From an uncultured virus (IMG/VR IMGVR_UViG_3300031787_000018) (Duplodnaviria > Heunggongvirae > Uroviricota > Caudoviricetes): a stretch of DNA of 64,000 nt. Below are positions 1,581 to 47,335 of the stretch, piece by piece. Below the pieces are notes generated by a model. It did not search any database and was not told the DNA's origin. It was given only the letters and a program-made list of their open reading frames with translations. The DNA is taken from positions 62,001-126,000 of IMG/VR virus record IMGVR_UViG_3300031787_000018; one strand, 5' to 3'. The position numbers and the translations under genes were made by a program. Within the stretch, counting starts at the first letter, position 1. Each line of letters begins with the position of its first letter.

Positions 1581-1583
1581 TAC

Positions 1584-1656: not shown

Positions 1657-1665
1657 CTAATAAAC

Positions 1666-1735: not shown

Positions 1736-1743
1736 CAACCCAT

Positions 1744-1772
1744 AACCCGATAATAAAATATCGGGTTTTTTT
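1744..1772 (+). terminator. Intrinsic terminator after the tRNA-like pair
   Basis: AACCCGATA-ATAAAA-TATCGGGTT followed by a T run. Confidence 0.8.
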
Positions 1773-1777
1773 ATACG

Positions 1778-2200
1778 ATGGAAAAATTAAAAGTAGGTGA
1801 TTTCGTTTCTTGTTTCTATAGTTTTAGAACTGGTACCGCTTACGGTAAAGTTTTAAAAATACATGATTTAAAAAATAATATAGATTGTGATGAATACGGT
1901 CCTATTATTACAGGTATGGGTGATGAGAATAGTAAACTTAAAGTAACCGTAAAAATATTAGGTTATGATATGGGTGAAGATTACGGTATTAACAGTTTAG
2001 GTGAAATTGTTGAAGATGTTGAAGAGACTAGGGAGTTGGATGTACATAAAATTTTCTACATTATAGATGAGAAACTAATTCGTGAAATGAGAATTGAGTG
2101 GGAGAATTTAATGAAAAAGAAGTTAGATTTCTTATATAAAAACATTAATAGGGATGTTTTGTCAGGCAGAAAAACCATCAAAGGGTTAAATATGACTTAA
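1778..2200 (+). CDS. Hypothetical protein (KVGD-start family)
   Basis: 140 aa ORF; its stop codon lies inside the degenerate first CRISPR repeat. Confidence 0.75.
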   Translation: MEKLKVGDFVSCFYSFRTGTAYGKVLKIHDLKNNIDCDEYGPIITGMGDENSKLKVTVKILGYDMGEDYGINSLGEIVEDVEETRELDVHKIFYIIDEKLIREMRIEWENLMKKKLDFLYKNINRDVLSGRKTIKGLNMT

Positions 2201-2429
2201 TAAACCTTTCGTTTATGGGTCTCCCACAACCAAGGTTTAAAAAGGGATCTTAAAAAATGGACTGTAGACACCTTTCGTTTATGGGTCTCCCACAACAAAC
2301 TTGCGGTGGAGTGGGGAGTTAAATTTAGCTGTAGACACCTTTCGTTTATGGGTCTCCCACAACAGTTCATCAACCGTACCGTCAATTGGTGAAGCTGTAG
2401 ACACCTTTCGTTTATGGGTCTCCCACAAC
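2195..2429 (+). CRISPR. CRISPR mini-array: 4 x 36-bp repeats and 3 spacers (30/31/30 nt), type VI-B-like repeat, no cas genes in the window
   Basis: Repeat GCTGTAGACACCTTTCGTTTATGGGTCTCCCACAAC at 2328-2363 and 2394-2429, one mismatch at 2261-2296, 5'-degenerate at 2195-2230; three unique spacers; strand inferred from resemblance to Cas13b repeats. Confidence 0.85.
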
Positions 2430-2737
2430 ATATTAACACATATTTTCTGAAATTCTGGGTAAGAAACCCCCATTTTTTGACATTTTTTCCAGATTTTACC
2501 ATAATCAACATATAAAACCGGTTTCTGATCACCAGTATCTATATTATCTAAAAATAAAAAATCCCCATTTTTATCAATATATTTTGTCCATCCTGGTTGT
2601 TTTTTTGATCCTACCAAGTTACATTCTGATAATTTATCATAAATAAATTTTTCTGCCTCAGATAATTCTGGAATATCATCAAACCAATCTAAATTTTCTA
2701 TGGATTCTTTTAATATTTTTTTAATTAAATTCCTCAT
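2279..2737 (-). CDS. MRNLIKKILKE-leader protein whose C-terminus is read from the CRISPR array
   Basis: Leader shared with many paralogs; ATATTTAT at 2743-2750 on the minus strand; the repeat translates as LWETHKRKVSTA twice. Confidence 0.8.
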   Translation of the reverse strand: MRNLIKKILKESIENLDWFDDIPELSEAEKFIYDKLSECNLVGSKKQPGWTKYIDKNGDFLFLDNIDTGDQKPVLYVDYGKIWKKCQKMGVSYPEFQKICVNMLWETHKRKVSTASPIDGTVDELLWETHKRKVSTAKFNSPLHRKFVVGDP

Positions 2738-2794
2738 ATCATATAAATATTTTGTATATTTGTAAAAATTAAAATAAATAGACCTCTCTAAGAG

Positions 2795-3313
2795 ATGGAA
2801 AATTTAGTATTAAAAGGTAAAATAATATTTGATCCTGAAAACAGAACCAGGAAACACAACCGTCAGGCTGATTGGAAACGTATTGCCATGGTTCATTTTG
2901 ATGGTGAGATGTGTGATTATTATGCTTGGTTTATTGAACGTAGATATAATATAAAACTAAATAAACCACTTAGAGGTTCACACATTACCTTTATTAATGA
3001 TAGTACTAAGGACCTGACTAAGAATTTTACAATACCCGTCAAAGTTATTAATGACAATTGGTCTAAACTTAAAGATAAGTGGGATGGTAAAGAAATAGAA
3101 GTTACTTTAAACCTAGATTTACGTTCCAACGGGGAACATTGGTGGATGAAAGTTCATTCACAATCATTCGAGGATATTAGAACCGAAATAGAATTAGGTA
3201 GACCTTTCTTTAACTATCACATGACTATTGGTTATGCTAATGAACGTAATATAGAACATTCTGAATATATTGTTGGTCTCATAGATAAATTTGGTAATAA
3301 TTATGGTATATAA
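2795..3313 (+). CDS. 2H phosphoesterase family protein (possibly Acb1/T4 gp57B-like)
   Basis: Two HxT motifs, SHITF and YHMTI, about 78 aa apart in a 172 aa protein. Confidence 0.7.
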   Translation: MENLVLKGKIIFDPENRTRKHNRQADWKRIAMVHFDGEMCDYYAWFIERRYNIKLNKPLRGSHITFINDSTKDLTKNFTIPVKVINDNWSKLKDKWDGKEIEVTLNLDLRSNGEHWWMKVHSQSFEDIRTEIELGRPFFNYHMTIGYANERNIEHSEYIVGLIDKFGNNYGI

Positions 3314-3340
3314 TACCAACAAATTGATTATAATTGTAAA

Positions 3341-3892
3341 ATGAAAATTATAGAAACTAAAATAAAAGATTTGGTTATCATTAAACCAAAAGTTTTTAAA
3401 GATGACAGAGGTCATTTTCTTGAAACTTATAATCAAACCGTGTTTGAAAAATTGGGCATAAATTTCGGTGACTTTCACCAAGACAATCAATCTTTATCTA
3501 AAAAAGGTGTATTAAGAGGTTTACACTTTCAAAAGGGTGAACACGCCCAAGCCAAATTGGTTAGAGTTATAAAAGGTTCAGTTTTAGATGTGGCGGTTGA
3601 CCTGAGAGAAGGTTCACCAACTTACGGTGAATGGAAATCTGTTTTGTTAACTAGTGATAATAATGTTATGTTTTTTATACCGGAAGGTTTTGCACATGGA
3701 TTTATTACACTAGAAGATGATACAATATTTAGTTACAAATGTAATAAACCTTACAACAAAGAATTTGAATCCGGTATTTTGTGGAATGATCCTGATTTAA
3801 ACATAGATTGGATGTTATACGGTGATGAACCAATAATGTCAGGAAAAGACCTAACTTTACCAACCCTTGAGGAATTAAATCAAAACTTATAA
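3341..3892 (+). CDS. rfbC: dTDP-4-dehydrorhamnose 3,5-epimerase
   Basis: DDRGHFLE, QDNQSLSKKGVLRGLHFQ, DVAVDLR..SPTYG, GFAHGF and WNDPDL motifs. Confidence 0.97.
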   Translation: MKIIETKIKDLVIIKPKVFKDDRGHFLETYNQTVFEKLGINFGDFHQDNQSLSKKGVLRGLHFQKGEHAQAKLVRVIKGSVLDVAVDLREGSPTYGEWKSVLLTSDNNVMFFIPEGFAHGFITLEDDTIFSYKCNKPYNKEFESGILWNDPDLNIDWMLYGDEPIMSGKDLTLPTLEELNQNL

Positions 3893-3906
3893 AATTTTAA
3901 AATTGA

Positions 3907-4311
3907 ATGGAAAAATTTAAAGTGGGTGATGTCGTTAGATTGACCAATGGTTTGACTGCAAAGGTTTTAAATAAACCTGGTACTTTTATGTCAAACGGTT
4001 CTTATGAAATAATGTTGGTGGAGTATACTATGAACGGTAGGATTTTACCTATAAAAGACAGTAAAAAATGGATTAAACCTGACGAAATTGCCTATAGTTT
4101 AACACAAACTGACACACATGAACCTCTTGAAAATTACATGGAAATTATCTATAACGGTCAAGAAATAGTCTTCATACCAAAAGATATTAGTAAAGTAGAA
4201 TTGGTTAAAGATGAAAACGGTTTTCAAACAATCAGACTCCATTATGAAGGTCACATACATGGTAGTATAAACATTCTAATTGGTGATAATAAAATAGAAA
4301 ATAATGGGTAA
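3907..4311 (+). CDS. Hypothetical protein (KVGD-start family)
   Basis: 134 aa ORF in operon context. Confidence 0.7.
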   Translation: MEKFKVGDVVRLTNGLTAKVLNKPGTFMSNGSYEIMLVEYTMNGRILPIKDSKKWIKPDEIAYSLTQTDTHEPLENYMEIIYNGQEIVFIPKDISKVELVKDENGFQTIRLHYEGHIHGSINILIGDNKIENNG

Positions 4312-4385
4312 GATTTTGTCAAAATGACCAAACAAACATGGAAAATCTAAGTTTAATTTATTAATGTTAGATAAAAGTTTTAAAT

Positions 4386-5327
4386 ATGAATAAGAAAGAA
4401 TTAAAAAACCTAAATAAAGATTTGGAAATACATTTGGTTGACATAATCAACATGTTTGACCCTTCTAAGACAAATAAATACACTAAATTCTTAGTTGATA
4501 TGTTTAAAAATTATATTTCTGAAAAAAATGAAAAAATTTCAAATAGGGACATACCATTAATTGGTAAAATAACTGGGGTGAAAGATGATAATGAGTTTTT
4601 ATATAAAATACCACAATCTAAAAATGAACTAGAAGAAGTATTAGTTGATTATATTCACGATGTTTTTAGTTATGAAAGATTAGAATCCTTACACAAATTT
4701 GACTACCATTTAAAGTTTGGTAGAATACCTCTTGAATATCGTGATATAAACAAATGTAATAGTTGGGACGATATTGTTCGTCTTAGTTCTTTAGCTACAA
4801 TTAAAGAAAAAGAAAAATCACTAGAAAAAGAAATTTTAAAAGTTTACGAAGATAATTCTTGGCTCGCAATTAAACCATTAACTTTTAAAGCTTCATTGGC
4901 ATATGGTTCTGGCACAAAATGGTGTACAGCCTCAAAAAACAACAAAGATTATTTTTATAGATATTCTAGAAATGGTGTTTTGATTTATGTAATTAGTAAG
5001 GAAAGTGGTAGAAAATTTGGTGTGTATTATACTGATTATGATGTGTTAACACCAGAATTTTCTGTATGGAATGAAATTGATAATAGAATTGACACTATTC
5101 AAACGGGTATACCTTCTGATGTGATGTCTGAAATTTATAAAAATTGTGTATCAGATATGAAAAACGTAAAATATTTTTCTGAAGAAGAATACCTAAAAAG
5201 TGAAAAGTATTATATACCAGAAGTAGTACCGATACAACAAATTGACGAAGAAGAAGCTAATATCATATATAATTATGGTGTTGATTACGAGACACCAGAC
5301 ACACCCCCAAGAGAAACCGATTTTTAA
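4386..5327 (+). CDS. DPS..NKY / YG.GTKWC paralog family protein (no leader)
   Basis: DPSKTNKYTKF and ASLAYGSGTKWCTAS motifs shared with four other ORFs in the window. Confidence 0.8.
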   Translation: MNKKELKNLNKDLEIHLVDIINMFDPSKTNKYTKFLVDMFKNYISEKNEKISNRDIPLIGKITGVKDDNEFLYKIPQSKNELEEVLVDYIHDVFSYERLESLHKFDYHLKFGRIPLEYRDINKCNSWDDIVRLSSLATIKEKEKSLEKEILKVYEDNSWLAIKPLTFKASLAYGSGTKWCTASKNNKDYFYRYSRNGVLIYVISKESGRKFGVYYTDYDVLTPEFSVWNEIDNRIDTIQTGIPSDVMSEIYKNCVSDMKNVKYFSEEEYLKSEKYYIPEVVPIQQIDEEEANIIYNYGVDYETPDTPPRETDF

Positions 5328-5352
5328 TAATTAAAAAAATAAAAAATATAAT

Positions 5353-5589
5353 ATGTTATTTGTAATTGAAGAAAATAAAACAAAAATGGCTCCACTAAAA
5401 AGCGGAGCTTTGATTGAATTAGACACATTTGGAAATGTGTGGTATAAATCTGATATAGATGTTGTGTTAGGTAAAGTTGTCAAGGATAAGTTTATACCTT
5501 TAACCAATAAAGAATTTAATTCAGATATGTTATTAGCGATAGCTAAAGTAGTCAACCAAGAAAGTATTGTTGATGAAATAAAAAAGTAA
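5353..5589 (+). CDS. Hypothetical protein
   Basis: 78 aa ORF followed by a terminator hairpin at about 5599-5622. Confidence 0.65.
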   Translation: MLFVIEENKTKMAPLKSGALIELDTFGNVWYKSDIDVVLGKVVKDKFIPLTNKEFNSDMLLAIAKVVNQESIVDEIKK

Positions 5590-5644
5590 TTCTTTATGAA
5601 ACCCCTTTACCGAGGGGTTTTTTATTTTAAGATGATATTTATTA

Positions 5645-6841
5645 ATGATGAATACTATCCGTAAAATTATTAAAGAACAATTACTCACTGAAAAGGCTGG
5701 AATATCGGAAATTGTTAGAAAATGGGCTACAATATTAAAAAATGAAGTAGACGAAAATTTAAAAATTCATAGAGAAGAACAACACAAAAAATATTCCCAA
5801 AAAACAAAGGGTATTTCATACCCATCCATGAGTGATATTTTTGATGTAAATTTAGATAAGCCTGTAAACCCTGAAGATGATCCTTTTTATTGGGAGGATG
5901 ACACTAGTAAAGGAAAAAATTATTATAAGAAAGGTTATGATGATTATATGAGAGAGGATTATAGGTCTAGACAGAGTTACAGTCAAATGTACGAACCTTT
6001 AGCCGAGGTTGTGGTATACGGTGAGGATTACCCCAAAGAATACGAAGAATTTTCAGTAGATGTTTGGGTTCTAACAAATAGTAATCGTATTGAGTATGAC
6101 CATTATGAATCTGGTTATGATGAAGATGGTTATTATATTGTTTACCTTAATATACCTTTAGCTGCCATGAGTATGTCCACTTTTATTCATGAAATTAAAC
6201 ATGCTTACGATGATTGGAATAGGATGCGAACCGGTGGTAAACCAATAAGAGATAGTTGGGAAATTAAAAATATATACACAAAAGATTTTGAAAAGTTAAT
6301 ACTAGGTGCTTCGGTAAACTTTCCACAATTGGGTCCTATAATTCGTAATTATTATATGGGTTCTAAATTGGAAACACCTGCTTACTTGGAAAACGAATAT
6401 GACAACGCAATGGTAAACTATCAAGATATTGGTAAAAAATTGATGAATTTTAAAGCATCTACTTTTATGACCAAGGAAGGTGAACCGGCTAGAGGTTTGG
6501 GGGATGAGTTTAAAAAACTACAAAGTTACGATATACCTTTATTCAAAAAATTTGATAATGTTTTAGATTTTTTAAGGTATACAGAAAAATATTTCAACCA
6601 AAGAGGTGAAGACATTTTTAGACGAGTTAACAAAATGAGATACGTTCACGGTTTACCGGCTAAACAAGAACCTAAAAAATGGGAACCAAGTACAAAAACA
6701 CAAAAAACAACAAGTACGAAGGGTACACAACAAGACCTTTTTAGTTCAAGTGAAGATTTTGATGATTGGAAATATTCTAGAGAAAGGGGTTGGTATTATG
6801 CTGGTAAAGGTGGTGAAGATTTTAATGATTATTATTACTAA
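5645..6841 (+). CDS. Leader-bearing HExxH zinc-metallopeptidase-like protein
   Basis: IRKIIKEQLLTE leader; FIHEIKHAY with a downstream LETPAYLE; paralog of 7471-8253. Confidence 0.7.
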   Translation: MMNTIRKIIKEQLLTEKAGISEIVRKWATILKNEVDENLKIHREEQHKKYSQKTKGISYPSMSDIFDVNLDKPVNPEDDPFYWEDDTSKGKNYYKKGYDDYMREDYRSRQSYSQMYEPLAEVVVYGEDYPKEYEEFSVDVWVLTNSNRIEYDHYESGYDEDGYYIVYLNIPLAAMSMSTFIHEIKHAYDDWNRMRTGGKPIRDSWEIKNIYTKDFEKLILGASVNFPQLGPIIRNYYMGSKLETPAYLENEYDNAMVNYQDIGKKLMNFKASTFMTKEGEPARGLGDEFKKLQSYDIPLFKKFDNVLDFLRYTEKYFNQRGEDIFRRVNKMRYVHGLPAKQEPKKWEPSTKTQKTTSTKGTQQDLFSSSEDFDDWKYSRERGWYYAGKGGEDFNDYYY

Positions 6842-6851
6842 ATTAAATTAA

Positions 6852-7481
6852 ATGAACATTAGAAAAATAATAAAAGAAACTTTATTATTGGAAATAGGTG
6901 AAGCCAATGTAGAACCATTCATGTGGAAGTTGGCTAACAAGACAGACGATTTTTATATCTATGAATTTAAAACGGCTGGAGGTTCAAACTTAAACATAAA
7001 TGTTACGTTTTATAAATTAAGTCCCAAGATGATGTCTAACTTAGTTGATAGAGACAGAAGATTACCAGAGGAGGCAATTAATTTAATTAAAAAAAATCCT
7101 ACGGGTTATTGGGATGTTGAGTTTACTGTTGAAGAAGACAGAGGTAGTGCACTTGATAATCCTTATCTTACAATTAGTAAATCAGAGTTTAAATCAGATA
7201 AAATAGAGTTATTTAAAATATTATCCACCTTAAACAAAATTGTTAATGATTTTTTGTATAAAGAAAAAAATGTCAGAGGACTTACTTTTAAACCAGTAAA
7301 TAGAAAAAGGGGGATGTTGTTTTTAACTTATTTTAAAAAACTTTTACCTGATGCACAAAAAATGGTAACACATTATGGTGTTCATATTATTGTTTTGGAT
7401 AAAAATTTAAATAAAGTGGATACAAGATTAAAAAAACAATCTTATCTGGATAGAAAAACGTTTGGTGATGATGAATATTAA
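6852..7481 (+). CDS. Leader-bearing hypothetical protein
   Basis: MNIRKIIKETLLLE leader, 209 aa. Confidence 0.8.
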   Translation: MNIRKIIKETLLLEIGEANVEPFMWKLANKTDDFYIYEFKTAGGSNLNINVTFYKLSPKMMSNLVDRDRRLPEEAINLIKKNPTGYWDVEFTVEEDRGSALDNPYLTISKSEFKSDKIELFKILSTLNKIVNDFLYKEKNVRGLTFKPVNRKRGMLFLTYFKKLLPDAQKMVTHYGVHIIVLDKNLNKVDTRLKKQSYLDRKTFGDDEY

Positions 7482-8253
7482 AAAAATAATAAAAAATATT
7501 CTAACAGAAAGTGCTGGTATCTCTTTTGAAGTAAGAGCTTGGTCTGATATTATTTATAACCTGTTGATAAATAACTCTGGTGATGAATTAATAGTTGATG
7601 GTCAAGAATATCCAGAAATATTTGAAAAATTTTCTGTTGATTATTTTGTTATTGATTTTAATAAAAGATTAAATGGTTATTTAAATGAAACTTCTGGTTA
7701 TGATAAAGACGGTAATTATGTGGTTCATATTTTAATTTTAGACAAACTTAAAGGTCACCCTTATTTAAAAACCGTTTTAAATCACGAAATCAAACACGCA
7801 TACCAAGATTGGCAAAGAATAAGTAAAGGTTATCCAAACATTAATTCAACAAAGGAATCCATAAACATGTATACTCGTGATTTTATCAAAGTTTTAAATA
7901 ATGAAACCCAAGTTAGTCAGATTTTTAAAGATGTATTAAAAGGTTATTACTTATTGTCAGACTTAGAGTTAGACGCTTTTATGGAAAATGTTTATGACCG
8001 AGACATGATGAATGATTACAGAGGAATGGTTTCGGAGTTAAAAAATTTATATGTGTTCAAAGACCTTCGTCATATAAGCCCAAAAATTTTAAAAAACGAT
8101 TGGTCTCTTTTGATAAACATGGACATACCTTTTTTAAAAAAATATAAAAATTACAATTCATTTTTGAAAAAATCTAACGAATATTTTAAAACAAGAAGTG
8201 AGGAAATAATTCGTAAATTAAATAAAATGGAATATGTTCACAGAGGAAGATAA
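7471..8253 (+). CDS. Leader-bearing HExxH zinc-metallopeptidase-like protein
   Basis: MNIKKIIKNILTE leader; LNHEIKHAYQ; SGYD.DG.Y motif shared with 5645-6841. Confidence 0.7.
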   Translation: MNIKKIIKNILTESAGISFEVRAWSDIIYNLLINNSGDELIVDGQEYPEIFEKFSVDYFVIDFNKRLNGYLNETSGYDKDGNYVVHILILDKLKGHPYLKTVLNHEIKHAYQDWQRISKGYPNINSTKESINMYTRDFIKVLNNETQVSQIFKDVLKGYYLLSDLELDAFMENVYDRDMMNDYRGMVSELKNLYVFKDLRHISPKILKNDWSLLINMDIPFLKKYKNYNSFLKKSNEYFKTRSEEIIRKLNKMEYVHRGR

Positions 8254-8363
8254 ACATCCCGATATTATTTTATTAGAAAATAAATTAATTAAAGTTGTTG
8301 GTGAAGAAGAGTATGAAAGAGCTGCTATATTGAAAAAGTGGATTGACTTGTTAGAAGAATACC

Positions 8364-8660
8364 ATGAAAAGAAAAATATTAAGAAAAATAATAAAAGAAG
8401 AACTTCTTAGAGAACAAATTGTTTGTCACTTAGTAGCACCCAAAGGTAAAGGTAAGGGTGGTTACATGAGTAATGAAGAGGCTTTGGATTTAATAGATAA
8501 AATACAAATAGGGGGTCGAAAAGAAATTCATGACCCACAACTTTGGGCAAAATTTGTTGAGACATTATCCGAATTTAGACAAAACATTAAAAATATTGAC
8601 ACCAACAACGATACTGTAGACACTTATTTACACAAATTGAGAGATTTGATTGGTTGTTAG
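8364..8660 (+). CDS. Leader-bearing hypothetical protein
   Basis: LRKIIKEELLRE leader. Confidence 0.75.
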   Translation: MKRKILRKIIKEELLREQIVCHLVAPKGKGKGGYMSNEEALDLIDKIQIGGRKEIHDPQLWAKFVETLSEFRQNIKNIDTNNDTVDTYLHKLRDLIGC

Positions 8661-8697
8661 TCTTTTTAATTTCACAAATTTTTCATACTATTGTTTT

Positions 8698-9057
8698 ATG
8701 AAACTATTAGATAAATTTTATTACGAACCTATTTTGGGTTTATTTCACCTATCAGGTATTGAAAGAATTATTAATGTATTTGTTATTTTATCGATTGGGG
8801 CTTTTGTTGGTGCCAACAATGTAGATTTACTAAATAAAGTTAACCCCATTGAACAAATTGGTATTTGGTATATAGTACCTTTTTTAGTTTTAAGTTATAT
8901 AATAATGGAACCTATGATAAACTTAACACCAAAAACAGAAAAAAAAAGTTTTTCTTATTTTGTGATAAATGTTTTATCAATTTTGGTTACCATGTTAGTA
9001 TTTGAGTTTATTTACAAATTGTTGTTAATCGTTTTTTTAGACTATTTTTTCAAATAA
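8698..9057 (+). CDS. Membrane protein, about 3 TM segments
   Basis: Hydrophobic stretches; ATG at 8698 preferred to the TTG at 8650. Confidence 0.7.
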   Translation: MKLLDKFYYEPILGLFHLSGIERIINVFVILSIGAFVGANNVDLLNKVNPIEQIGIWYIVPFLVLSYIIMEPMINLTPKTEKKSFSYFVINVLSILVTMLVFEFIYKLLLIVFLDYFFK

Positions 9058-9110
9058 CATGTGACTTTTTATGAATTTTTAATATTTATATAAAGATAAA
9101 TTATATTAAT

Positions 9111-10652
9111 ATGAATTCATTATATAAACTACTAGAAGAAACAGTACTACTAGAAGGTCGTAAAGAACAAGTTATGGCCAAATACCCTGATGTGGATAAA
9201 GAAGTTATAGAATTTATTTCACAAAATGACCCTTCAGGTAATAATAAATATTTAGATTGGGCTGTCAAACAAGTTAAAGAAGGTGGAGACAAAGCTGATG
9301 TGGTATATTTGGTAAACAAATATCACCAAAACTTAAGTCTGATAAACACTGACCTAATAAAAGATTATCTTGAAACTTATGACACACCTATTGAAGACAA
9401 ATTAAAAAAATCAGCAAAAGATATTAATATATTTCCGGATCTTGATGAATTAAGGGTTTTTGCCGAATTTTTAGGAAGATACTCTGCCAAATCCAAAGAA
9501 GAAAAAGAAATAAAAAGTGAAGGTGATAAAGTTTTTGAAAATAAAGATTTAACTGTTGTATCACCAAGAACTCACAGAGCTTCTTGTAAATATGGTGTAC
9601 ACAGTGCATGGTGTGTTGCTACAGCAAACACAAGTCATTTTGCTAATTATACAAAAGACGGTACTTTATATTTCTTCATTAGTAGAAAAGATTACCCTTA
9701 TACGGAATATTGGAAGGATAAAGACGGTGGTAACCCACCTTACAAAACAGCTTTATTATTGAAAGACAATGGTCAGGCTTCATGGTGGTCCAAGGGTGAT
9801 AGTAATTACGCTAATGGTTTAGACACTAATGATCCTAAATTATCACCTTTTTTCACTGAAAAAATTAAAAATGCGGTATTAGCTCACAACAGAGACGCGA
9901 TAAAAAATCGTAAACAAAGACAAATAGAAGATACTTTAAAAGCTAAAGGCTTTTATAAACCAGGTTATGGAGATAATAGTTTGAAGGACAATTTTGGTGG
10001 ATTTGTTCAATCTGGGATTTATTCAAAAGAACAATTGGTTTCAATAATAAAAAATGATAATTGGTTGGCTTTATATGAGAACTCAAATACTGGTAAAATC
10101 GTTCGTGAACAATTAGGTGGTGAAACTGTGTTTGGTTTGATAATTGAAATGTTAAGTTCTTTGGGTGTAGAAGATGTTCGTACAAAACTTAAAGACATGG
10201 AGGCACAAGATTTTTTCAGATCGGCAGTAACAAAACTAAGTGATGATGAAAATCGTCAAATAGCAAAACTTATTATCCAAAAACTTGGTGCAAAACCAAC
10301 ATCAAAAGACGTTGGTAATGATATTAAAATTTATGTTGACAAATGGACATTATCACCTGAAGGTTGGCGTACATATAACACAACTTCTAACTATTTTGTG
10401 GTAGGTGATATTGTTGGTGAAACAATAAAACCAATTCAAATGATAAAAGTTGATAGATTTAATCCAGCAGACCACAGTCAATTACAAGTTTCTTCTTGGG
10501 TAGCTAAAAACTCTAATTCTAAAATGTACGCTGTCACAACAGAAAAAGATTTATTAGACGATTATATTGGTAAAAACGTAGAATTACCTCCAGCAATACA
10601 AAAACTAGTATCCCAAAAAGCTAGTCAGGTGTGGCCAAAGGTAGATAAATAA
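9111..10652 (+). CDS. DPSGNNKYLDW / ASCKYG..WC paralog family protein with leader
   Basis: LLEGRKE leader; family motifs; AATATTTAT at 9081; terminator at about 10656-10680. Confidence 0.85.
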   Translation: MNSLYKLLEETVLLEGRKEQVMAKYPDVDKEVIEFISQNDPSGNNKYLDWAVKQVKEGGDKADVVYLVNKYHQNLSLINTDLIKDYLETYDTPIEDKLKKSAKDINIFPDLDELRVFAEFLGRYSAKSKEEKEIKSEGDKVFENKDLTVVSPRTHRASCKYGVHSAWCVATANTSHFANYTKDGTLYFFISRKDYPYTEYWKDKDGGNPPYKTALLLKDNGQASWWSKGDSNYANGLDTNDPKLSPFFTEKIKNAVLAHNRDAIKNRKQRQIEDTLKAKGFYKPGYGDNSLKDNFGGFVQSGIYSKEQLVSIIKNDNWLALYENSNTGKIVREQLGGETVFGLIIEMLSSLGVEDVRTKLKDMEAQDFFRSAVTKLSDDENRQIAKLIIQKLGAKPTSKDVGNDIKIYVDKWTLSPEGWRTYNTTSNYFVVGDIVGETIKPIQMIKVDRFNPADHSQLQVSSWVAKNSNSKMYAVTTEKDLLDDYIGKNVELPPAIQKLVSQKASQVWPKVDK

Positions 10653-10726
10653 TTGAGGGGGGTTGTAAAACCCCTTTTTTATTTTTATATTTGTTATAAT
10701 TAAAAAATTAATATAACATTGTAAAA

Positions 10727-11212
10727 ATGAAAATTGTAGAAGTCATTCTGTTATTGTCTTTATTACACGTTTTAATTTCGATGTTTTGTTGTATATCTAC
10801 AATTGAGATTGGAAAAAAATGGTATGAAAAAATATATTTGTTAATACCAGGTCTTAATTTTATTTGGACCTTATACACCTTAGATAGTGAAATTTCATTA
10901 TTAAAATTGGACAAATCTTATTTTGAATTAAAGTCTCAAATACACCAAAGACAAATAGTAGAATTACGTAATATCAACAAATCACCTAGAAAAATAAAGA
11001 TTGGTGATGGTATTGTTTACCCAAATAACGAAACTGTAAAAAATGAGGTCAGAGGTAAAATTGGTGTCATAGTGGAAATAAATGATGAAGGTGTTGTAGC
11101 TGAGATAGTTGATAGTGATACATATTGGACTACAAGTTGGGATGTTATATACGGTGATAACATTGTAATTATAGGTAATGATGTTTTAAAACCTTTTAAA
11201 TTTGTAAATTAA
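10727..11212 (+). CDS. Membrane-anchored protein with a C-terminal KIGD domain
   Basis: Two hydrophobic N-terminal segments; ends LKPFKFVN. Confidence 0.7.
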   Translation: MKIVEVILLLSLLHVLISMFCCISTIEIGKKWYEKIYLLIPGLNFIWTLYTLDSEISLLKLDKSYFELKSQIHQRQIVELRNINKSPRKIKIGDGIVYPNNETVKNEVRGKIGVIVEINDEGVVAEIVDSDTYWTTSWDVIYGDNIVIIGNDVLKPFKFVN

Positions 11213-11331
11213 ATGAACCCAAAAACAACTTTAAATCTTAAATTAACTTTTAAAATCATCAAAAAATTTTTAAAATTTGTTTGTAAACCTTTTTATTCTT
11301 ATATTTGTAACCGTATAGAAAAAAGGAAGTC

Positions 11332-11754
11332 ATGGTGAACAGGAAAGTTAGGTTTAATTACGATATATTAGAAGAATATAAGGCAGGTATTGTTTTAATA
11401 GGTTCTGAGGTTAAGTCTATTAAATCGGGTGATGTCAGTGTCGACGGGTCTTATTGCTTCTTCAAGGACGGTGAGTTGTTTATTAAAAATATGTACGTCA
11501 AACCATATGAAAGTTCAAGAAATGATTTAGACCCAAGACGTGATAGAAAATTACTTCTTAAAAAAAAAGAAATTAAAAAGTTACAAATAGCTCTTAGTGA
11601 AAAAGGTTTAACTATAATACCTTTGGCTTTAAAAAATGAAGGTAGAATAAAAGTTATAATTGGTGTTGGTAGAGGTAAAAAAATATACGATAAAAAAGAA
11701 ACAATAAAAGAACGTGATATAAAAAAACAATTAAAGAAAAATTATGAAATTTAA
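11332..11754 (+). CDS. smpB: SsrA-binding protein SmpB
   Basis: NRKVRFNY, AGIVLIGSEVKSIK, DPRRDRKLLL, GLTIIPL and GKKIYDKKETIKERD motifs. Confidence 0.95.
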   Translation: MVNRKVRFNYDILEEYKAGIVLIGSEVKSIKSGDVSVDGSYCFFKDGELFIKNMYVKPYESSRNDLDPRRDRKLLLKKKEIKKLQIALSEKGLTIIPLALKNEGRIKVIIGVGRGKKIYDKKETIKERDIKKQLKKNYEI

Positions 11755-12052
11755 CTTTACCGAAAAAAAATCAAAAGTAATACCTTTAGAAATGGTACCT
11801 AACATCACTTCAGTCTATAGTGAAGAAAATGAAAATGGTGATTTTTATGATTTTAGTGATGGTGCTTATATATCTGATAATGAAAAACAAAAATGGATTG
11901 AAGAAGTTATTGATTACTTAAATGAAAATCCTGATGAGGCATACTGTAACATATCTTGTGGTGGTTCTATGGTTATAGGTCTTAGAAGTATTGATAGTAT
12001 AGAAATAATTGTTATAAATTCTTATATGACAGCAACAATTGTAGAGGATTAA
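11744..12052 (+). CDS. Hypothetical protein
   Basis: 102 aa ORF overlapping the smpB stop. Confidence 0.7.
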   Translation: MKFNFTEKKSKVIPLEMVPNITSVYSEENENGDFYDFSDGAYISDNEKQKWIEEVIDYLNENPDEAYCNISCGGSMVIGLRSIDSIEIIVINSYMTATIVED

Positions 12053-13491: not shown

Positions 13492-13539
13492 TGGTGATTT
13501 TTATCACCATTAATTTTTTAAAATTTTTAATTTTGTGAT

Positions 13540-14082
13540 ATGAAAAAATTATTATTATCTTTATTATTACCCCTGAATTTATTCGCCACTGATTTTGTAT
13601 ATTTAGTCGGACAAGAATGGCCCAATAATAATATATCCGGAAATTACAGTTCAGATACAGTTCAGATAAGTGTTACAAATTTTGACAAATTAATTGTACG
13701 TAATGTCGCCACGTATGGTATTGGGTGTAGTATAAATGGGTTTATAGTAGATGGTATGGCACAGTCAGAGGCAAGATTATTTGATTTTACTAATGATAAC
13801 CTAAGTGACACCAAACAATTTGTATTTTTTGATGGTAATAATGTATTTGTTGTAAACGTATTAATTATTGACGTTATTACAAACGTTAGATATGTAAGAT
13901 TATTTAACCATCCAAACTTTAAGTCAGAACTACAAAACTCAAATGTATATGTCGTTGATATATTTGGTAATATTATCTACATGGGTGATGGAAATAAATT
14001 AGATATCATCAACATATCTGACTATGGTATTGGTATGTATATATTGATGATTAACAATAAAAAAATTAAAATTATAAAATAA
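13540..14082 (+). CDS. Secreted protein with a T9SS type-A CTD-like tail
   Basis: Signal peptide MKKLLLSLLLPLNLFA; C-terminal VYVVDIFGNII...INISDYGIGMYILMINNKKIKIIK. Confidence 0.65.
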   Translation: MKKLLLSLLLPLNLFATDFVYLVGQEWPNNNISGNYSSDTVQISVTNFDKLIVRNVATYGIGCSINGFIVDGMAQSEARLFDFTNDNLSDTKQFVFFDGNNVFVVNVLIIDVITNVRYVRLFNHPNFKSELQNSNVYVVDIFGNIIYMGDGNKLDIINISDYGIGMYILMINNKKIKIIK

Positions 14083-14164
14083 CGGTTGATGATAAACAAT
14101 CGTTTTAATGTTGTTTATCATTTGTTATATTCAGTTTTTATTAGTATATTTGTAAAAAAATAAA

Positions 14165-14464
14165 ATGATTAAAGAAATTAAAAAATGGGTATTGTTTAAT
14201 ATTTTGAAAGGTAAAGCACATCTTTTAAGATTCAAACATTTTTTAAAAACAGGAAGAGACATTGAAATGTTACCACCACCACAAAAAGATTATGCTAGAG
14301 CTTATTTTTTTGAAATAGAAAATGGTGATTATGTTTTAAAACATCATGAAATTCCGTCAAATTTCATAGAAAAGTTCCACGAAGACTTCAATAACAAAAA
14401 TGGTAAGTTAATGGGTTTAACAAGGGAACAAGTGGTTAGATGGGTTGTAGAAAATAAAAATTGA
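14165..14464 (+). CDS. Cassette 1 hypothetical protein
   Basis: 99 aa ORF inside 14124-14471 with its own TATATTTG promoter element. Confidence 0.75.
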   Translation: MIKEIKKWVLFNILKGKAHLLRFKHFLKTGRDIEMLPPPQKDYARAYFFEIENGDYVLKHHEIPSNFIEKFHEDFNNKNGKLMGLTREQVVRWVVENKN

Positions 14465-14521
14465 ATATAACGATACTCAGATATATTTCAGGTTTCTGAT
14501 ATTTATATATAAAACAAAATT

Positions 14522-14770
14522 ATGAGCAAAGAAATGAGAAAATACATAGACACTTTCAAACAGAGACTAACTGAATCAGAAAACTTGAATATATCTGATG
14601 TTAGTGATAGTGAGTTATTCACTTTACAAGATATAAAAGACGCTATTACAATAGCGTTCAGATGGGGAAAACCTATTGGTTGGGGCGAAGGTCCTGAAAA
14701 ATTTGATGAGGAGGAAAAGAATGTCTTTAACGAGATTATCAAGGAATTAAGAATTAGGAAAAGTGAATAA
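14522..14770 (+). CDS. Cassette 2 protein, N-terminus encoded inside the preceding hairpin
   Basis: GATATTTAT at 14498; MSKEMRKYIDTFKQRLTE leader; crosses GTTA at 14600. Confidence 0.7.
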   Translation: MSKEMRKYIDTFKQRLTESENLNISDVSDSELFTLQDIKDAITIAFRWGKPIGWGEGPEKFDEEEKNVFNEIIKELRIRKSE

Positions 14771-14856
14771 ACTAATTATCACTAACGTTTGCAAATATGA
14801 GAAGTAAATTTTTCCTCTAAGATTTGGTAATCTAAAATTTATTTCTTATATTTGTT

Positions 14857-14959
14857 GTTATAAGTAGTGTGTGGGTGATTAACCCCGCATCGGAAGATTA
14901 ACTAATAGTGGTGAAAATCCACAGCGGGGTCAATGTCATCTACACACATTACTTATAAC
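14857..14959 (+). ncRNA. Cassette 3: ORF-less structured RNA
   Basis: Nested helices including ACCCCGC/GCGGGGT and GTGG-TGAAAAT-CCAC; TTTG-N20-TATATTTG promoter at 14823-14854. Confidence 0.55.
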
Positions 14960-15024
14960 GGTTTCGGGCTTTGCGTTCGGCAGGGCTTATGGAAACGGAT
15001 TTATCAACTTAAAAATAAATAACA

Positions 15025-15312
15025 ATGGAAAACGAAAACTTAAATTTGAACGAAACCCCTGCTGACGCAAAACCCGTGTTAGGCGATGTTTTCCCTTCGG
15101 GTGGAATTGACCTTGTTGGGTACAATGTAGAATATTGGGTAAGAAGTCCAAAAGCAACTTTTTTAGCTAAAGGCTTAATTGTGTCTTACAGCAAAAAGGG
15201 CAAACATGGGAAAGGGTCTTATTCGGGTGGTGTTTATGTAATTAGATGCGGTAAAAGGACGTTTTCAAAGAGAAGATGTGAATTTACGGTGGTGTCTAAA
15301 AATATCGCCTAA
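15025..15312 (+). CDS. Cassette 4 protein, N-terminus encoded inside the preceding hairpin
   Basis: 95 aa; crosses GTTA at 15078; its stop is the TAA of the closing TAAC. Confidence 0.7.
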   Translation: MENENLNLNETPADAKPVLGDVFPSGGIDLVGYNVEYWVRSPKATFLAKGLIVSYSKKGKHGKGSYSGGVYVIRCGKRTFSKRRCEFTVVSKNIA

Positions 15313-15359
15313 CTATTATATATAAACAAGTATAGGTTAAACCATTTAAAATCAATTAA

Positions 15360-16161
15360 ATGAACCAAAAAATTATAAAGATTTGCGAAGAAAAGTTTAT
15401 ATACTTAAATTACTCTCCTCGAACAAAAGATAATTATTTAAGTCACATTAAAGACTTCCTAAAATCTCTGGGAGATAAACAAGTCATTCATTGTAATTCA
15501 AAAGATTTCCAATCTTACTTAGATAACTACAAATTTACCTCTATTTCACAACAAAACCAAGTTATTAACTCAATCAGATTTCTCTACAAATTCGGTCTAA
15601 ATAAGAAATACGATAAAGTATCTTTCAAACGACCCAAGTCAGAAAAGAAGTTACCAAAAGTAATTGATAATGATTACATTATAGAGTGTCTATCGAAGAT
15701 AAATAATTTGAAGCATAAATCAATATTATCTTTGTCGTATTCGGTTGGTTTGAGGGTTTTCAGAAGTTGTTAATCTTAAGATAGAAGACATTGATTCTAA
15801 AAGAATGATAATCCATATCAAAAACGCTAAAGGTAGAAAAGATAGGGTAGTCCCCCTTTCTCAGAACATCTTAGAATTATTAAGAAGTTATTACAAAGAG
15901 TTTAGGCCAATTGATTTTTTATTTAATGGTCAAAATAACTTAAAATATAGTACTGGCAGTTGTAACCAAATTGTTAAAAAATACTTAGGTGAAAAATATC
16001 ACATTCACCAATTAAGACATAGTTGTGCAACAAACCTATTGGAGAATGGTACAGACCTAAAATTAATTCAAAAAATATTAGGTCATTATTCAGTTAAAAC
16101 TACAGAAATATATACACATGTCTCAAATCAATTATTGTCAAAGGTAAATCTTCCTATTTAA
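15360..16161 (+). pseudogene. Tyrosine recombinase (N-terminal SAM-like plus catalytic domain) split by a +1 T frameshift
   Basis: YSPRTKDNYL; YSVGLRV then SEVVNLK once one T is removed from GGGTTTT at 15754-15760; KGRKDR, HQLRHSCAT and LGH..VKTTEIYTH. Confidence 0.9.
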
Positions 16162-16197
16162 TTTTGCCACCAAATAGATAATCACTATATTTGTTAT

Positions 16198-16446
16198 ATG
16201 AAAAATACATTATTAGTTTTATTAGGTTTATTTCTGATGTCAACCACGGTTGTGACTGTAAATAAAATGTCAGACAGAAGTAAGGAACAAAAGGTTATTC
16301 TAGGAAGAAATCTTAACCAATTAAAGGTTGAAATACAAGATAACTTTAAATTAGGTTATCGTGTTGTGGCTATGGTTAATCAAAACCAAGACACTTATAG
16401 CAATTCATCACCAAACGATGAGATAATGGTTGTAATGGAAAAATAA
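16198..16446 (+). CDS. Small exported hypothetical protein
   Basis: Signal-like N-terminus; TATATTTG upstream. Confidence 0.7.
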   Translation: MKNTLLVLLGLFLMSTTVVTVNKMSDRSKEQKVILGRNLNQLKVEIQDNFKLGYRVVAMVNQNQDTYSNSSPNDEIMVVMEK

Positions 16447-16451
16447 TTATC

Positions 16452-16763
16452 ATGTCAACAAAATTCAAATTCAATAACGGTAATATGGCATTAGTATGTT
16501 CTTCTTGTGGGAGGATACTAAAAACAGGCGGTGAGTTTACAGAACAAGAATGGAGGTGTTTAAACGGTGAGGTAGATTTAGGTGATAAGTATTGTTCTGA
16601 TTGTGAAGATAATGTTAAACCTGAAGATAAAACTGGTGATAACATGATGTCAAATTTAGAACATATAAAAAATATTTTACCACATATTAGGAATGATGAA
16701 AATTTTCAGTTAAATTTGTTAAATAGTTTAATGAAAAAAATCAAAAATGATAAACAATCGTAA
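16452..16763 (+). CDS. Zn-ribbon-like hypothetical protein
   Basis: CSSC and CSDC pairs. Confidence 0.65.
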   Translation: MSTKFKFNNGNMALVCSSCGRILKTGGEFTEQEWRCLNGEVDLGDKYCSDCEDNVKPEDKTGDNMMSNLEHIKNILPHIRNDENFQLNLLNSLMKKIKNDKQS

Positions 16764-47303: not shown

Positions 47304-47335
47304 AATTATAATGTATTATTATAAATATCATAAAA

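Follow-up and report, generated by a model that had tools for sequence, protein, structure and literature searches.

Hairpins of attC-like build carry promoter motifs and gene starts in a probable integron-like cassette array of a giant phage

Integrons, including the sedentary chromosomal type with the Vibrio VCRs, combine a tyrosine recombinase, an adjacent simple site and an array of single-gene cassettes, and their attC sites are regarded as the non-coding ends of promoterless cassettes. The pdif modules are flanked by short two-arm Xer sites of ~28 bp, the polymorphic internal proteins of T-even phages start with conserved capsid-targeting leaders, and the PeSL cassettes of T4-type phages have reportedly also been treated by Comeau and colleagues in 2014. 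In the portion of Arbiol et al. 2010 (PMC2839356) used here, the PeSL of T4-type phages are promoter-plus-hairpin modules, each joining a strong promoter to a terminator stem-loop, that flank small novel ORFs and mediate modular shuffling. The portion used here of Qi et al. 2023 (PMC9892861) reports CALINs in virulent phages, including a Polaribacter phage, with some of the sites recombined by IntI1 in an assay.

The stretch of DNA analysed here (the window) comprises 64,000 nt of an uncultured virus, positions 62,001 to 126,000 of IMG/VR record IMGVR_UViG_3300031787_000018; the whole genome is that of a giant freshwater phage and has 132,425 bases. Upstream of a recombinase gene lie four hairpins (H1-H4; Table 1) in which sequence reading reveals a shared build, TAAC-N5-stem-loop-stem-N1-2-GTTA. 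They are attC-like by build, with an imperfect palindrome, outer boxes, a spacer, a variable loop and strand-biased folding. Compared with 200 shuffles, the + strand DNA folds have z -3.9 for H1 and z -6.3 for H3 (0/200 as good in both cases), z -2.6 for H2 (2/200) and z -1.7 for H4 (10/200). Over both strands of the genome, the three highest TAAC..GTTA hairpin scores are those of H3 (19.9), H2 (18.3) and H4 (15.4), against a background maximum of 13.8, and the hairpins are confined to one cluster in the phage's own 132 kb.

Table 1. Hairpins, cassettes and recombinase gene of the array, in window coordinates
Feature	Coordinates	Strand	Details
H1 mini-hairpin, 48 nt	14080..14127	+	TAAC-GG..stem..loop TCGTTTTAATG..stem-TT-GTTA
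Promoter-like motif TTTG-N20-TATATTTG	14121..14152	+	Pattern scan
Cassette body 1, ORF of 99 aa	14165..14464	+	No family match
H2, 136-nt hairpin	14468..14603	+	TAAC 14468-14471, GTTA 14600-14603
ORF2, 82 aa	14522..14770	+	Leader, residues 1-27 (hairpin-coded); body, 28-82, no Met
H3, 78-nt non-coding hairpin	14783..14860	+	Sequence reading, folding
"Cassette 3", gene-less 103-nt palindromic element	14857..14959	+	17-bp outer stem; from H3 GTTA to H4 TAAC
H4, 126-nt hairpin	14956..15081	+	TAAC 14956-14959, GTTA 15078-15081, ATG 15025
ORF4, 95 aa	15025..15312	+	Leader, residues 1-19; body, 20-95, no Met
Putative attI-like terminal site TAAC-TATTATATATA	15310..15324	+	~50 nt before recombinase ATG
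Xer/IntI-like tyrosine recombinase gene (predicted)	15360..16161	+	Split into 15360-15773 and 15805-16161

The TAA of H1 terminates ORF 13540-14082, and 40-41 nt of the hairpin recur with 100% identity in many related loci, in several copies per locus. The GTTA end of H1 overlaps the TTTG of a promoter-like motif that lies 13 nt 5' of the ATG at 14165. H2 contains GATATTTAT at 14498-14506, and its loop and 3' arm carry the ATG at 14522 plus 27 leader codons (MSKEMRKYIDTFKQRLTESENLNISDV); codon 27 is GTT (14600-14602), so the leader crosses GTTA as GTT-A into ORF 14522-14770. The H4 leader (MENENLNLNETPADAKPVL) has 19 codons, the last two being GTG (codon 18) and TTA (codon 19), and it therefore crosses as G-TTA into ORF 15025-15312, which ends with the first three letters of the terminal TAAC as its stop codon. 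H3 holds TTTG-N20-TATATTTG in its loop and 3' arm (14823-14854), and copies of it, 86-89% identical, are present in loci L066, L085 and L019-21. The gene-less element that follows H3 has a fold z of -5.1, no Rfam family and no copy in the other related loci examined. These readings bear out the initial annotation, which had placed an ATG and a leader reading across GTTA in H2, a host promoter motif in H3, and an ATG with about 18 codons fused to the next cassette in H4, with different frames at the two crossings.

Across the whole window, Rfam returned nothing at gathering thresholds, and in E-value mode it returned for 13900-15500 only generic miRNA and snoRNA hairpin look-alikes far below threshold; a tRNA/tmRNA search found none. 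No family was assigned by Pfam or PHROGs to any of ORFs 14165-14464, 14522-14770 and 15025-15312, and the ESM Atlas gave no match of at least 0.9, and no lead, for the ORF4 body. A blastn search of 13500-16500 against phage records produced a single 106-nt match, to an unannotated metagenomic phage.

The window contains 16 matches to TTTG-N17-21-TAnnTTTG where 5.5 would be expected, a count that none of 100 shuffles reaches. The strict motif lies within only 8 of 255 hairpins. The host-type promoter motif of H3 and the promoter-like motif at the H1 end probably fire; for the motif at 14121-14152 a contig-depth step in one RNA library, where unitig depth climbs from 28.6 to 97 and the DNA runs are flat, hints at this. 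A reading as invertible promoters was dropped: at 11 nt in H1 and 21 nt in H3, the loops do not have the length needed for inversion.

A single additional T, within the run 15757-15760, splits the recombinase gene beside the array; the gene is intact in 74 of 75 relatives. Contigs of three runs show no indel difference, so the frameshift is real, and the window hairpins are intact although the adjacent gene is frameshifted. The phage recombinases, of ~267 aa, miss all curated NCBIfam cut-offs: the best model is XerA_Arch (171-196 bits; cut-off 220), and IntI TIGR02249 gives 155-162 bits, in two stretches, against a cut-off of 265. The IntI-specific insertion is absent, query residues 174-207 (34 aa) facing residues 176-257 (82 aa) of VchIntIA. 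By these profiles, the predicted phage enzyme is a member of the Xer/IntI group. A putative attI-like site, (T/C)AAC-TAT(T/C)ATATAT, is kept ~50 nt before the recombinase ATG in 56 loci examined (CAAC in 4). In 59 viral loci at least 1.5 kb of sequence precedes the recombinase gene, and 55 of these have hairpins upstream of it and on the same strand; over all 80 viral loci, 235 hairpin matches fall on the + strand ahead of the gene, 3 lie downstream of it and 7 are - strand. The integrases found in isolated phages (Cellulophaga phage Ingeline; Polaribacter phages Freya and Leef) are only 32-39% identical, and four stretches from Ingeline_1, Freya_1 and Freya_10 contain no clustered TAAC..GTTA hairpins, three having none and the fourth (L100) two background-level matches (12.4 and 11.3; scan threshold 11). 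We found no cultured model of exactly such a system among isolated phages, and no description of such gene-starting hairpins in the literature searched.

Invariance of TAAC and GTTA in the hairpin family is set by the scan design; the bases beside these cores are conserved as well (+5 G in 97%, -5 T in 99%, -7 T in 96%). An unbiased scan, with strict Watson-Crick scoring and symmetric spacers, found 236 hairpins, in which (5,2) and (5,1) are the most frequent spacer pairs, with 88 and 81 cases, and in which non-Watson-Crick stem positions on the + strand are of the G.T type 369 times versus 37 of the A.C type. The phage sites are hairpins of 48-220 nt with loops of 11-75 nt or more. The bacterial relatives (80 loci, mostly Bacteroidota) have 24 matches on the - strand versus 1 on the + strand. 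These - strand hairpins lie downstream of the recombinase, between + strand ORFs, and the strict scan in the bacterial loci gives 26 A.C-type versus 6 G.T-type positions on the ORF strand. As the favoured strand is antisense to the genes in these bacteria, the conserved property is folding of the DNA strand, not of the mRNA. The Bacteroidota arrays (L127, L148, L153, L168 and others) share with the phage the TAAC..GTTA build (116-128 nt) and a recombinase of the same group without the IntI insertion, but their hairpins follow genes, the folding strand is antisense, the array is downstream of the recombinase gene, and recombinase identity to the phage enzyme is only ~40-50%.

Of 143 long hairpins, 88 enclose the first ATG of the main ORF, compared with 3 of 76 short ones, and 60 of the 91 cases have no other ATG within 15 codons past the junction; the reading frame is fixed within each hairpin family. 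The 3' arm of H2 is present in 60 viral stretches, with the leader in frame in 49 of 49 unique copies. Behind this arm stand 46 bodies that fall into 43 unrelated groups, so that, as the initial annotation had anticipated, a junction peptide recurs on different bodies and the same N-terminus is not tied to one of them. The window bodies, too, stand behind several different leaders in homologues: all 17 homologues of the ORF2 body have an N-terminal extension, with at least 6 leader variants, and the homologues of both bodies (ORF2 and ORF4) have varied leaders and no start codon of their own. Neither window body has a Met; translation therefore cannot start at any ATG inside the cassette. The pooled dN/dS of the loop-coded leader codons 2-14 is 0.48 in 32 leaders, and one leader family constitutes the first half of lipoprotein-type signal peptides, with the Cys in the body. 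The leaders are probably translated. In many independent fusions, all of them in frame, their join to the body can be seen at GTTA(+8), and leader swaps are seen between bodies that are 82-95% identical. As on the internal proteins of T-even phages, one short N-terminal peptide is found on many unrelated small proteins in a hypervariable locus, but here the leader is coded in a putative recombination hairpin, and the genes read give no sign of virion targeting or cleavage; a T4-style capsid-targeting role is speculation only.

In 5 of 5 non-duplicate pairs of homologous bodies, the upstream hairpin is kept and the downstream hairpin is lost, with identity blocks that begin at the 5' TAACG of a hairpin and end at the next TAACG. 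Pairs of similar hairpins (353 in all) share the downstream flank only in 53 cases, the upstream flank only in 1 (borderline), both in 1 and neither in 298, a pattern indicating that the moving unit is a hairpin with the body that follows, not a body with the next hairpin. Since, in the informative comparisons, identity breaks at the 5' TAAC and not at GTTA, and the hairpin travels with the downstream body, ordinary cassette moves keep leader, frame and promoter with their gene. Of the combinatorial switch envisaged in the initial annotation, one part stands, in that the hairpins place gene starts on many bodies; the other part, that reordering re-pairs leaders, frames and promoters with cargo, is not supported, as the hairpin moves with its downstream body and the recombinase is broken. 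In two pairs in which the same body stands behind unrelated hairpins, similarity starts at (T)GTTA. GTTA is also a module boundary, and a single TAAC crossover point alone accounts neither for such pairs nor for the 298 of 353 similar-hairpin pairs in which no flank is shared. Leader swapping is seen only over evolutionary time. No switching takes place in this phage, whose recombinase gene is frameshifted and whose array did not differ between contigs from runs of 2017, 2018 and 2024. The loose ends of contigs diverge just behind 14608-14611, 14866 and 15082-15085. No reliable recombination joint was found among the contigs and reads examined, of which raw-read run X22 covered 7 of 30 bins. 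All seven joints had sides of 20-24 letters, below the 30-letter reliability mark; three of these seven link the two arms of one hairpin (14488/14579, 14979/15063 and 14980/15057) and are taken as repeat artefacts, not as excision.

We consider it probable that the hairpins are attC-like sites of an integron-like cassette array belonging to a small phage-borne recombinase related to Xer and IntI. Each site would run from TAAC through a 5-nt spacer into one side of an imperfect 11-25-bp stem, round a loop, back along the other side, and over 1-2 nt to GTTA. In the phage it would be selected to fold as the + strand, on which the recombinase presumably acts; exchange at the 5' TAAC of this strand would move a hairpin and its following body, and the array would end just short of the recombinase gene, at the conserved TAAC site that forms no hairpin. 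Relative to their cargo, the phage sites appear to be turned round with respect to those of the bacterial relatives of the recombinase, which would put the site at the 5' end of the gene and not at its 3' end. The loop and 3' arm may thereby serve as an expression module that supplies either a promoter (H3, H1 end) or a start codon and a leader (H2, H4), the latter reading through GTTA into the body after 19-27 codons. Over longer times the leader is re-assorted onto other bodies, most simply by recombination in near-identical shared arms. Counting against this reading are the missing IntI-specific insertion and the missed profile cut-offs of the recombinase, its frameshift beside intact hairpins, the behaviour of GTTA as a second module boundary, the scarcity of the strict promoter motif, the contigs and reads that yielded no reliable joint, and the single depth step as the sole sign of transcription.

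The locus resembles integrons in having a recombinase and a putative simple site, then an array of single-gene cassettes; in palindromes that are imperfect, bounded by AAC...GTT boxes and bulged at the spacer, with a variable loop and better folding of one strand; in the mapping of exchange to a conserved triplet with which the folding strand begins, where the units are bounded (5/5 pairs; 53:1 for the downstream body); in one site family on unrelated genes; and in cargo that is mostly unknown but includes orphan DNA methylases. It differs in that the recombinase lacks the IntI-specific insertion and the system is carried by phages, often giant ones. Whereas integron cassettes are mostly promoterless and read from a common promoter, with the gene before attC and on the non-folding strand, in the phage the site stands at the 5' end of genes that share its folding strand, and the cassettes bring their own promoter or start codon, the site probably being translated as the N-terminus. 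Unlike pdif sites, those described here are long hairpins. The part of PMC9892861 used here likewise describes attC-type sites borne by virulent phages with DNA methylases among the cargo, but these are canonical attC calls, reported there with no linked recombinase and no start codon or leader in the sites.

An unlikely alternative is that the hairpins are PeSL-like regulatory cassettes, promoter or terminator modules that are shuffled by homologous recombination while the recombinase is uninvolved. Like the PeSL in the available part of PMC2839356, by which T4-type phages shuffle ORFs, these are short repeated promoter-plus-hairpin modules beside small novel phage ORFs; the hairpin families are near-identical repeats with several copies per genome, assemblies break at the hairpin arms, H1 and H3 have promoter motifs, and the leader swaps are most simply derived from crossovers in shared arms. 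However, PeSL as described in that part are scattered in many hyperplastic regions, untranslated, and have no dedicated recombinase or core triplets, whereas the phage has a single cluster in 132 kb, beside the recombinase gene, with the strict motif in 8 of 255 hairpins. The fixed side and orientation in 55 of 59 loci, the conserved bases beside the cores, the same TAAC core in the non-hairpin site at the recombinase gene, the 10:1 strand bias of wobble pairs and the adjacency of related bacterial recombinases to the same hairpin type also count against it. To a role in RNA, as mRNA processing sites, terminators or translational control with DNA breakpoints as a by-product, we give hardly any credence. 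The favoured strand of the phage is mRNA-sense, start codons lie in loops and H1-type mini-hairpins lie just past stop codons, as such a role would have it; but the favoured strand is antisense to genes in the bacterial relatives, no Rfam family matches, a transcript started inside the hairpin, as the H3 motif implies, would lack the 5' arm, and the recombinase linkage and attI-like site would be left unexplained.

Crossover at GTTA, with each hairpin belonging to the preceding cassette and reordering acting as an expression and fusion switch, was the model of the initial annotation. One leader on 43 unrelated body groups, window bodies behind several leaders, body similarity that begins at GTTA in the two same-body pairs and the contig loose ends all agree with it, and opposite-strand recombination would put the crossover at the GTTA side. 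Yet a body is kept with its downstream hairpin in 0 of 5 pairs, a hairpin with its upstream flank alone in 1 of 353, and identity blocks are delimited by the 5' TAACG. Two in three random re-pairings would lose the frame, against 49 of 49 in frame, and the recombinase here is broken and the array static. We regard this model as very unlikely.

If the hairpins are attC-like sites, a further, tentative possibility is that they are dual-use: one strand would fold for recombination and also encode the promoter, the start codon and a leader of 19-30 residues, these modules would be re-assorted onto cargo at the GTTA edge, by shared-arm crossovers or occasional opposite-strand recombination, and the conserved M-K-x-x-K-H-I-x-x-F-x-E...NLNISDV leader might be a functional tag, perhaps one for localisation or for packaging into the virion. 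In that case the array would be a natural means of capturing start-less ORFs and supplying them with ready-made N-termini. A related site, here reversed and itself apparently translated, would double as a front end for any gene, and start-less bodies could still be expressed through the hairpin-borne start. Because the join recurs at GTTA(+8) in many independent in-frame fusions, the array bears on how a site family becomes attached to unrelated genes. On the preferred reading, gene capture of the integron type would also take place in phages and with a recombinase that lacks the IntI domain. Small unknown proteins, numbering in the hundreds, and orphan DNA methylases make up the cargo, which is a plausible pool of anti-defence genes, and its turnover is such that only 2 groups are common to different arrays among 229 hairpin-plus-body units.

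The four hairpins at 14080-15081 are built alike: each opens with TAAC and a 5-nt spacer, folds as an imperfect stem around a loop, and closes with 1-2 nt and GTTA. As + strand DNA they fold with z-scores of -3.9 (H1), -2.6 (H2), -6.3 (H3) and -1.7 (H4), and when both strands of the complete 132-kb genome are ranked by hairpin score, H3, H2 and H4 take the first three places, indicating that the cluster is unique in the genome and not a chance feature. The 132-kb contig to which the window belongs (G+C 29%) abounds in small + strand genes, and a 318-kb viral contig (L081/L096) contains a stretch identical to the window's. The elements that the initial annotation had read in the hairpins were recovered. 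H2 contains GATATTTAT (14498-14506) and an ATG from which a leader, the hairpin-coded N-terminal codons, runs through GTT (codon 27, 14600-14602) into the next cassette; H4 supplies an ATG and 19 codons, about 18 having been claimed, ending in GTG and TTA. ORF2 (14522-14770) and ORF4 (15025-15312) therefore cross GTTA in different frames, as had been proposed. The motif read as a host promoter in H3, TTTG-N20-TATATTTG, is present at 14823-14854; the pattern is that of the Bacteroidetes housekeeping promoter consensus, and the window has 16 copies of it where 5.5 would be expected, a count reached in 0 of 100 shuffles. The interval 14857-14959, which runs from the H3 GTTA through the H4 TAAC, has no ORF; it forms a long palindrome of its own (z -5.1), for which Rfam gave no family.

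Features of the hairpin array and its surroundings (window coordinates)
Feature	Position	Strand	Description
H1	14080-14127	+	loop 11 nt; mini-hairpin, non-coding
Promoter-motif copy	14121-14152		begins within the terminal GTTA of H1; ATG 14165 follows 13 nt on
H2	14468-14603	+	loop 74 nt; ATG 14522 + 27 codons
H3	14783-14860	+	loop 21 nt; promoter-like motif
H4	14956-15081	+	loop about 75 nt; ATG 15025 + 19 codons
TAAC-TATTATATATA	15310-15324		directly after ORF4
Tyrosine recombinase gene	starts 15360		Pfam Phage_int_SAM_4 and Phage_integrase
Promoter-motif copy	16163-16193		

The H1-type mini-hairpin (48 nt; loop ATCGTTTTAATG) recurs in many loci (L082-L085, L053 and others) at 2-3 copies per array, with 40-41 nt (window 14087-14127) 100% identical across different phages; in L012, L040 and L060 its loop also makes up very small "empty cassettes" (GTTA..TAAC) that immediately precede the attI-like site. 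The ORF just before H1 (13540-14082) has a weak, below-cut-off match to Por_Secre_tail, the type IX secretion C-terminal sorting domain (E 0.002), which hints at a Bacteroidota host.

The hairpin observation is real and general. Relatives of the C-terminal half of the recombinase numbered 202 in viral contigs, and in the 80 loci kept a purpose-written scanner (score of at least 13; raw hits, overlaps counted) found 235 hairpins on the recombinase strand and upstream of the gene, against 3 downstream of it and 7 on the opposite strand. At least one hairpin occurs in 55 of the 59 loci having at least 1.5 kb upstream, with up to 12 per 6 kb. After removal of overlaps and identical contexts, the related viral loci (L001-L097) and the window yielded 255 hairpins, which group by length at about 86-92 nt and about 113-139 nt, with a few of about 190-200 nt. 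Bases flanking TAAC and GTTA are kept as well (-8 A, -7 T in 96%, -5 T in 99%, +5 G in 97%; after GTTA, +4 G, +7 G and +8 T), which indicates that the ends of the bodies, the cassette parts behind GTTA, are inverted repeats extending the stem. About 50 nt 5' of the recombinase ATG, (T/C)AAC-TAT(T/C)ATATAT is present in all 56 loci examined (CAAC in four), a candidate attI-like terminal site. In the literature searched, we found no account of such arrays or of attC-like sites encoding gene starts; among what is described, the text of Qi et al. 2023 (PMC9892861) reports CALINs in virulent phages, a Polaribacter phage included, and that of Arbiol et al. 2010 (PMC2839356) the promoter-stem-loop (PeSL) cassettes of T4-type phages.

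The + strand was more stable in 229-231 of the 255 hairpins, a figure that leans to this strand because the scanner credited its wobble pairs. The strand test proper is a rescan with strict Watson-Crick scoring and symmetric spacer ranges, neither strand being favoured, which gave 236 unique hairpins. Non-Watson-Crick stem positions in these were G.T-type on the + strand in 369 cases and A.C-type in 37, and the commonest spacer pairs were (5,2) in 88 hairpins and (5,1) in 81. The + strand is selected to fold, with a 3-4-nt bulge at its 5' side.

Many of the hairpins hold the predicted start of the gene behind them. Of the 255 hairpins, 119 contain an ATG whose ORF continues beyond GTTA for 20 codons or more: 8 of 93 short hairpins, 90 of 137 of the 96-132-nt classes and 21 of the 25 above that length. 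These ORFs cross the junction as GTT-A in 82, G-TTA in 33 and otherwise in 4. The first ATG of the main ORF lies inside the hairpin in 88 of 143 long hairpins versus 3 of 76 short ones, where 46 of 76 ORFs begin 1-14 codons behind GTTA; in 60 of 91 inside-hairpin starts there is no second ATG within 15 codons past the junction.

A search for the junction peptides, as the initial annotation had suggested, was run with the exact 24 nt of the H2 3' arm, which has 61 copies (49 unique) in 60 viral stretches. All 49 unique copies carry an ATG-led leader in the GTT frame, 46 of which run on for at least 30 residues, and blastp sorts these 46 bodies into 43 groups, so that this N-terminus is not tied to one body. 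The leaders follow the pattern M-K-x-x-K-H-I-x-x-F-x-E-x-x-E-N-L-N-I-S-D-V, often then S-D-S, the final residues being set by the conserved arm together with the outer box. Pooled over 32 leaders, the Nei-Gojobori dN/dS of codons 2-14, which the loop encodes, is 0.48, a rough figure because the pairs are not independent. Conversely, the ORF2 body (residues 28-82) has 17 homologues, with bodies 64-95% identical, all of which have an N-terminal extension, in at least six distinct leader variants. Translation from within the cassette was likewise not what we found: the ORF2 body lacks Met, and none of the 17 homologues starts at the junction. Matches to the ORF4 body (residues 20-95) number 21, one being itself; 19 of the 20 others have varied leaders and one is called from a GTG within the site. 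One leader family (...FAFAYVLL|VAV...C; L047:302, L067:2058, L083:292) is the first half of lipoprotein-type signal peptides, and the body completes the signal (VAV..GC / ..SSC). With the start coded by the hairpin and the completion by the body, a functional signal would span the GTTA junction.

What moves, in the comparisons available, is a hairpin together with the body that follows it. Among 224 bodies between two hairpins, 57 pairs are homologous over at least 70% of their length, and 52 of these were dropped as one context seen twice. In all five that were left, the hairpin before the body is conserved (identity 0.75-1.0) and the one behind it is not (0.49-0.68), and in two aligned pairs, with bodies 100% and 95% identical, identity runs from the (A/C)TAACG of the upstream hairpin to the next TAACG. 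In addition, 353 hairpin pairs at least 80% identical (among 251 unique hairpins) were compared over their 80-nt flanks: neither flank is alike in 298, only the downstream in 53, only the upstream in 1 (at the 0.70 limit) and both in 1. These results together place the exchange at the 5' TAAC of the folding strand, presumably the counterpart of the side that is cleaved on the folded attC bottom strand. When flipped, the phage layout resembles a classical integron, since the recombinase gene points away from the array and the site is at the far end of the cassette; unlike in an integron, the genes of the phage array all lie on the folding strand. Upstream ORFs often take their stop from the site: 52 of 216 end with the TAA of TAAC, and 45 of 216 end 12 nt before it.

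Leaders and bodies have nevertheless been re-paired. More than one leader group occurs in 7 of the 12 body groups with more than one member, and in two aligned examples of one body behind different hairpins similarity extends from (T)GTTA to the next TAACG. Such pairs, with the 298 pairs alike in neither flank, indicate that hairpins have been re-assorted onto bodies over evolutionary time. In chromosomal integrons one attC family sits on unrelated genes, which the phage re-assortment resembles. The combinatorial re-pairing of the initial annotation thus holds on an evolutionary scale, but a working switch by cassette reordering is not supported, because the hairpin moves with its following body. 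Units do not move at GTTA; hairpins of one family are identical over about 24-32 bases of the 3' arm and outer box, and crossovers within this shared stretch would swap leaders with the frame kept, opposite-strand recombination being a possible alternative route. Cargo turnover is extreme: the 229 units compared form 27 groups with more than one member, of which only two, C9 (L002/L067) and C17 (L023/L033), are common to distinct arrays, the others being one array twice.

The intact homologues of the recombinase have 265-268 aa. Their best NCBIfam model is XerA_Arch ("site-specific tyrosine recombinase/integron integrase"; 171-196 bits, cut-off 220), followed by the integron integrase TIGR02249 (155-162 bits in two stretches, cut-off 265) and then XerC and XerD. 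Against the VchIntIA structure (2a3v), 34 query residues stand opposite 82 integrase residues, so the phage recombinase lacks the IntI-specific insertion. The insertion itself is noted by Smyshlyaev et al. 2021. Among 185,579 species genomes searched, the nearest cellular relatives are 40-51% identical, a single 67% match on a 2-kb contig excepted, and mostly come from Bacteroidota. The bacterial recombinases are also without the insertion and reach 207-214 bits with TIGR02249, in two stretches; one passes the XerA_Arch cut-off. Some have long N-terminal extensions (ORFs of 379 and 558 aa).

In the 80 bacterial loci (L102-L181), the strand opposite to the recombinase has 24 hairpins downstream of that gene (in 16 loci) and the recombinase strand has 1; those of L153 and L148 stand between + strand ORFs. 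The strict scan gave 26 A.C-type versus 6 G.T-type positions on the gene strand, with spacers reversed. The bacterial arrays have ordinary integron polarity, gene then site, with the folding strand antisense; in the phages the array is reversed with respect to its genes. This opposite polarity speaks for conservation of folding in the DNA and not in the mRNA. The tally in the IntegronFinder 2.0 paper (PMC9024848) gives only In0 elements and one complete integron for Bacteroidetes, so that these arrays were apparently not counted there as integrons. The bacterial hairpins measure 116-128 nt (in L153, 8526-8642, 9229-9344 and 12275-12393).

The recombinase in the window's phage is dead, its gene being split by one extra T (run 15757-15760). 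The gene is intact in 74 of 75 judgeable loci (5 of 80 are too short), and is split only in L038 and the window. The stretch 13900-16300 was found in 20 runs from 18 studies, possibly including the source run, all freshwater and "fungus" metagenomes from 2017 to 2025. Contigs from X4 (2017 DNA), X2 (2018 RNA library) and X13 (2024 DNA) have no indel anywhere and the same H1-H4 order, which shows that the extra T is real and the array static. Contigs break at the hairpin arms; other sequences meet them immediately before 14956, each with ...CCGC next to TAAC, and further junctions lie just behind 14608-14611, 14866 and 15082-15085, so the arms are common to other contexts in those communities. 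Unitig depth in the RNA library is 28.6 to 14128, 97 at 14099-14863 and 127 from 14837 onward; in the two DNA runs it is 19-26 outside the repeated arms, within which the depths of other contexts add. The RNA steps coincide with two promoter motifs and lend these weak support, the values being contig means of one library with DNA carry-over possible.

Cassette proteins of at least 70 aa number 183. A Pfam scan of the 100 longest that were left once the two recombinase ORFs heading the list and one near-duplicate body had been set aside assigned a family to 12 of 100 and none to 88: N6/N4 DNA methylases (6, five of them in array L090), RNA ligase, Rv2179c-like exoribonuclease, GNAT, DUF7446, DUF551 and an EF-Tu-like fragment. 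L090, a viral contig, has a single array of 13 hairpins (673-11939) with five separate methylase cassettes, and the recombinase is absent within its 12-kb locus.

The Polaribacter phages Freya_10 (L098) and Freya_1 (L100/L101) share a 100% identical sequence that begins about 50 nt 5' of the integrase ATG; the preceding 4.1 kb of Freya_10 (L098 1-4150) has no match in the preceding 6 kb of Freya_1, and the ten Freya records differ in length by up to 4.9 kb at this integrase-adjacent spot. It is a swap hot-spot that adjoins a distantly related recombinase and has no TAAC..GTTA hairpins. Elsewhere in the window, the - strand codes for an ATP-dependent DNA ligase (45845-48124) whose two ORFs, 47336-48124 and 45845-46642, each match phrog_114 and have a homing-endonuclease ORF between them (46533-47300, phrog_655), which looks like interruption by a mobile endonuclease element. 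Three ORFs (4386-5324, 43536-44492 and 53451-55130) all match phrog_17056, a PHROG of unknown function, and may be paralogues.
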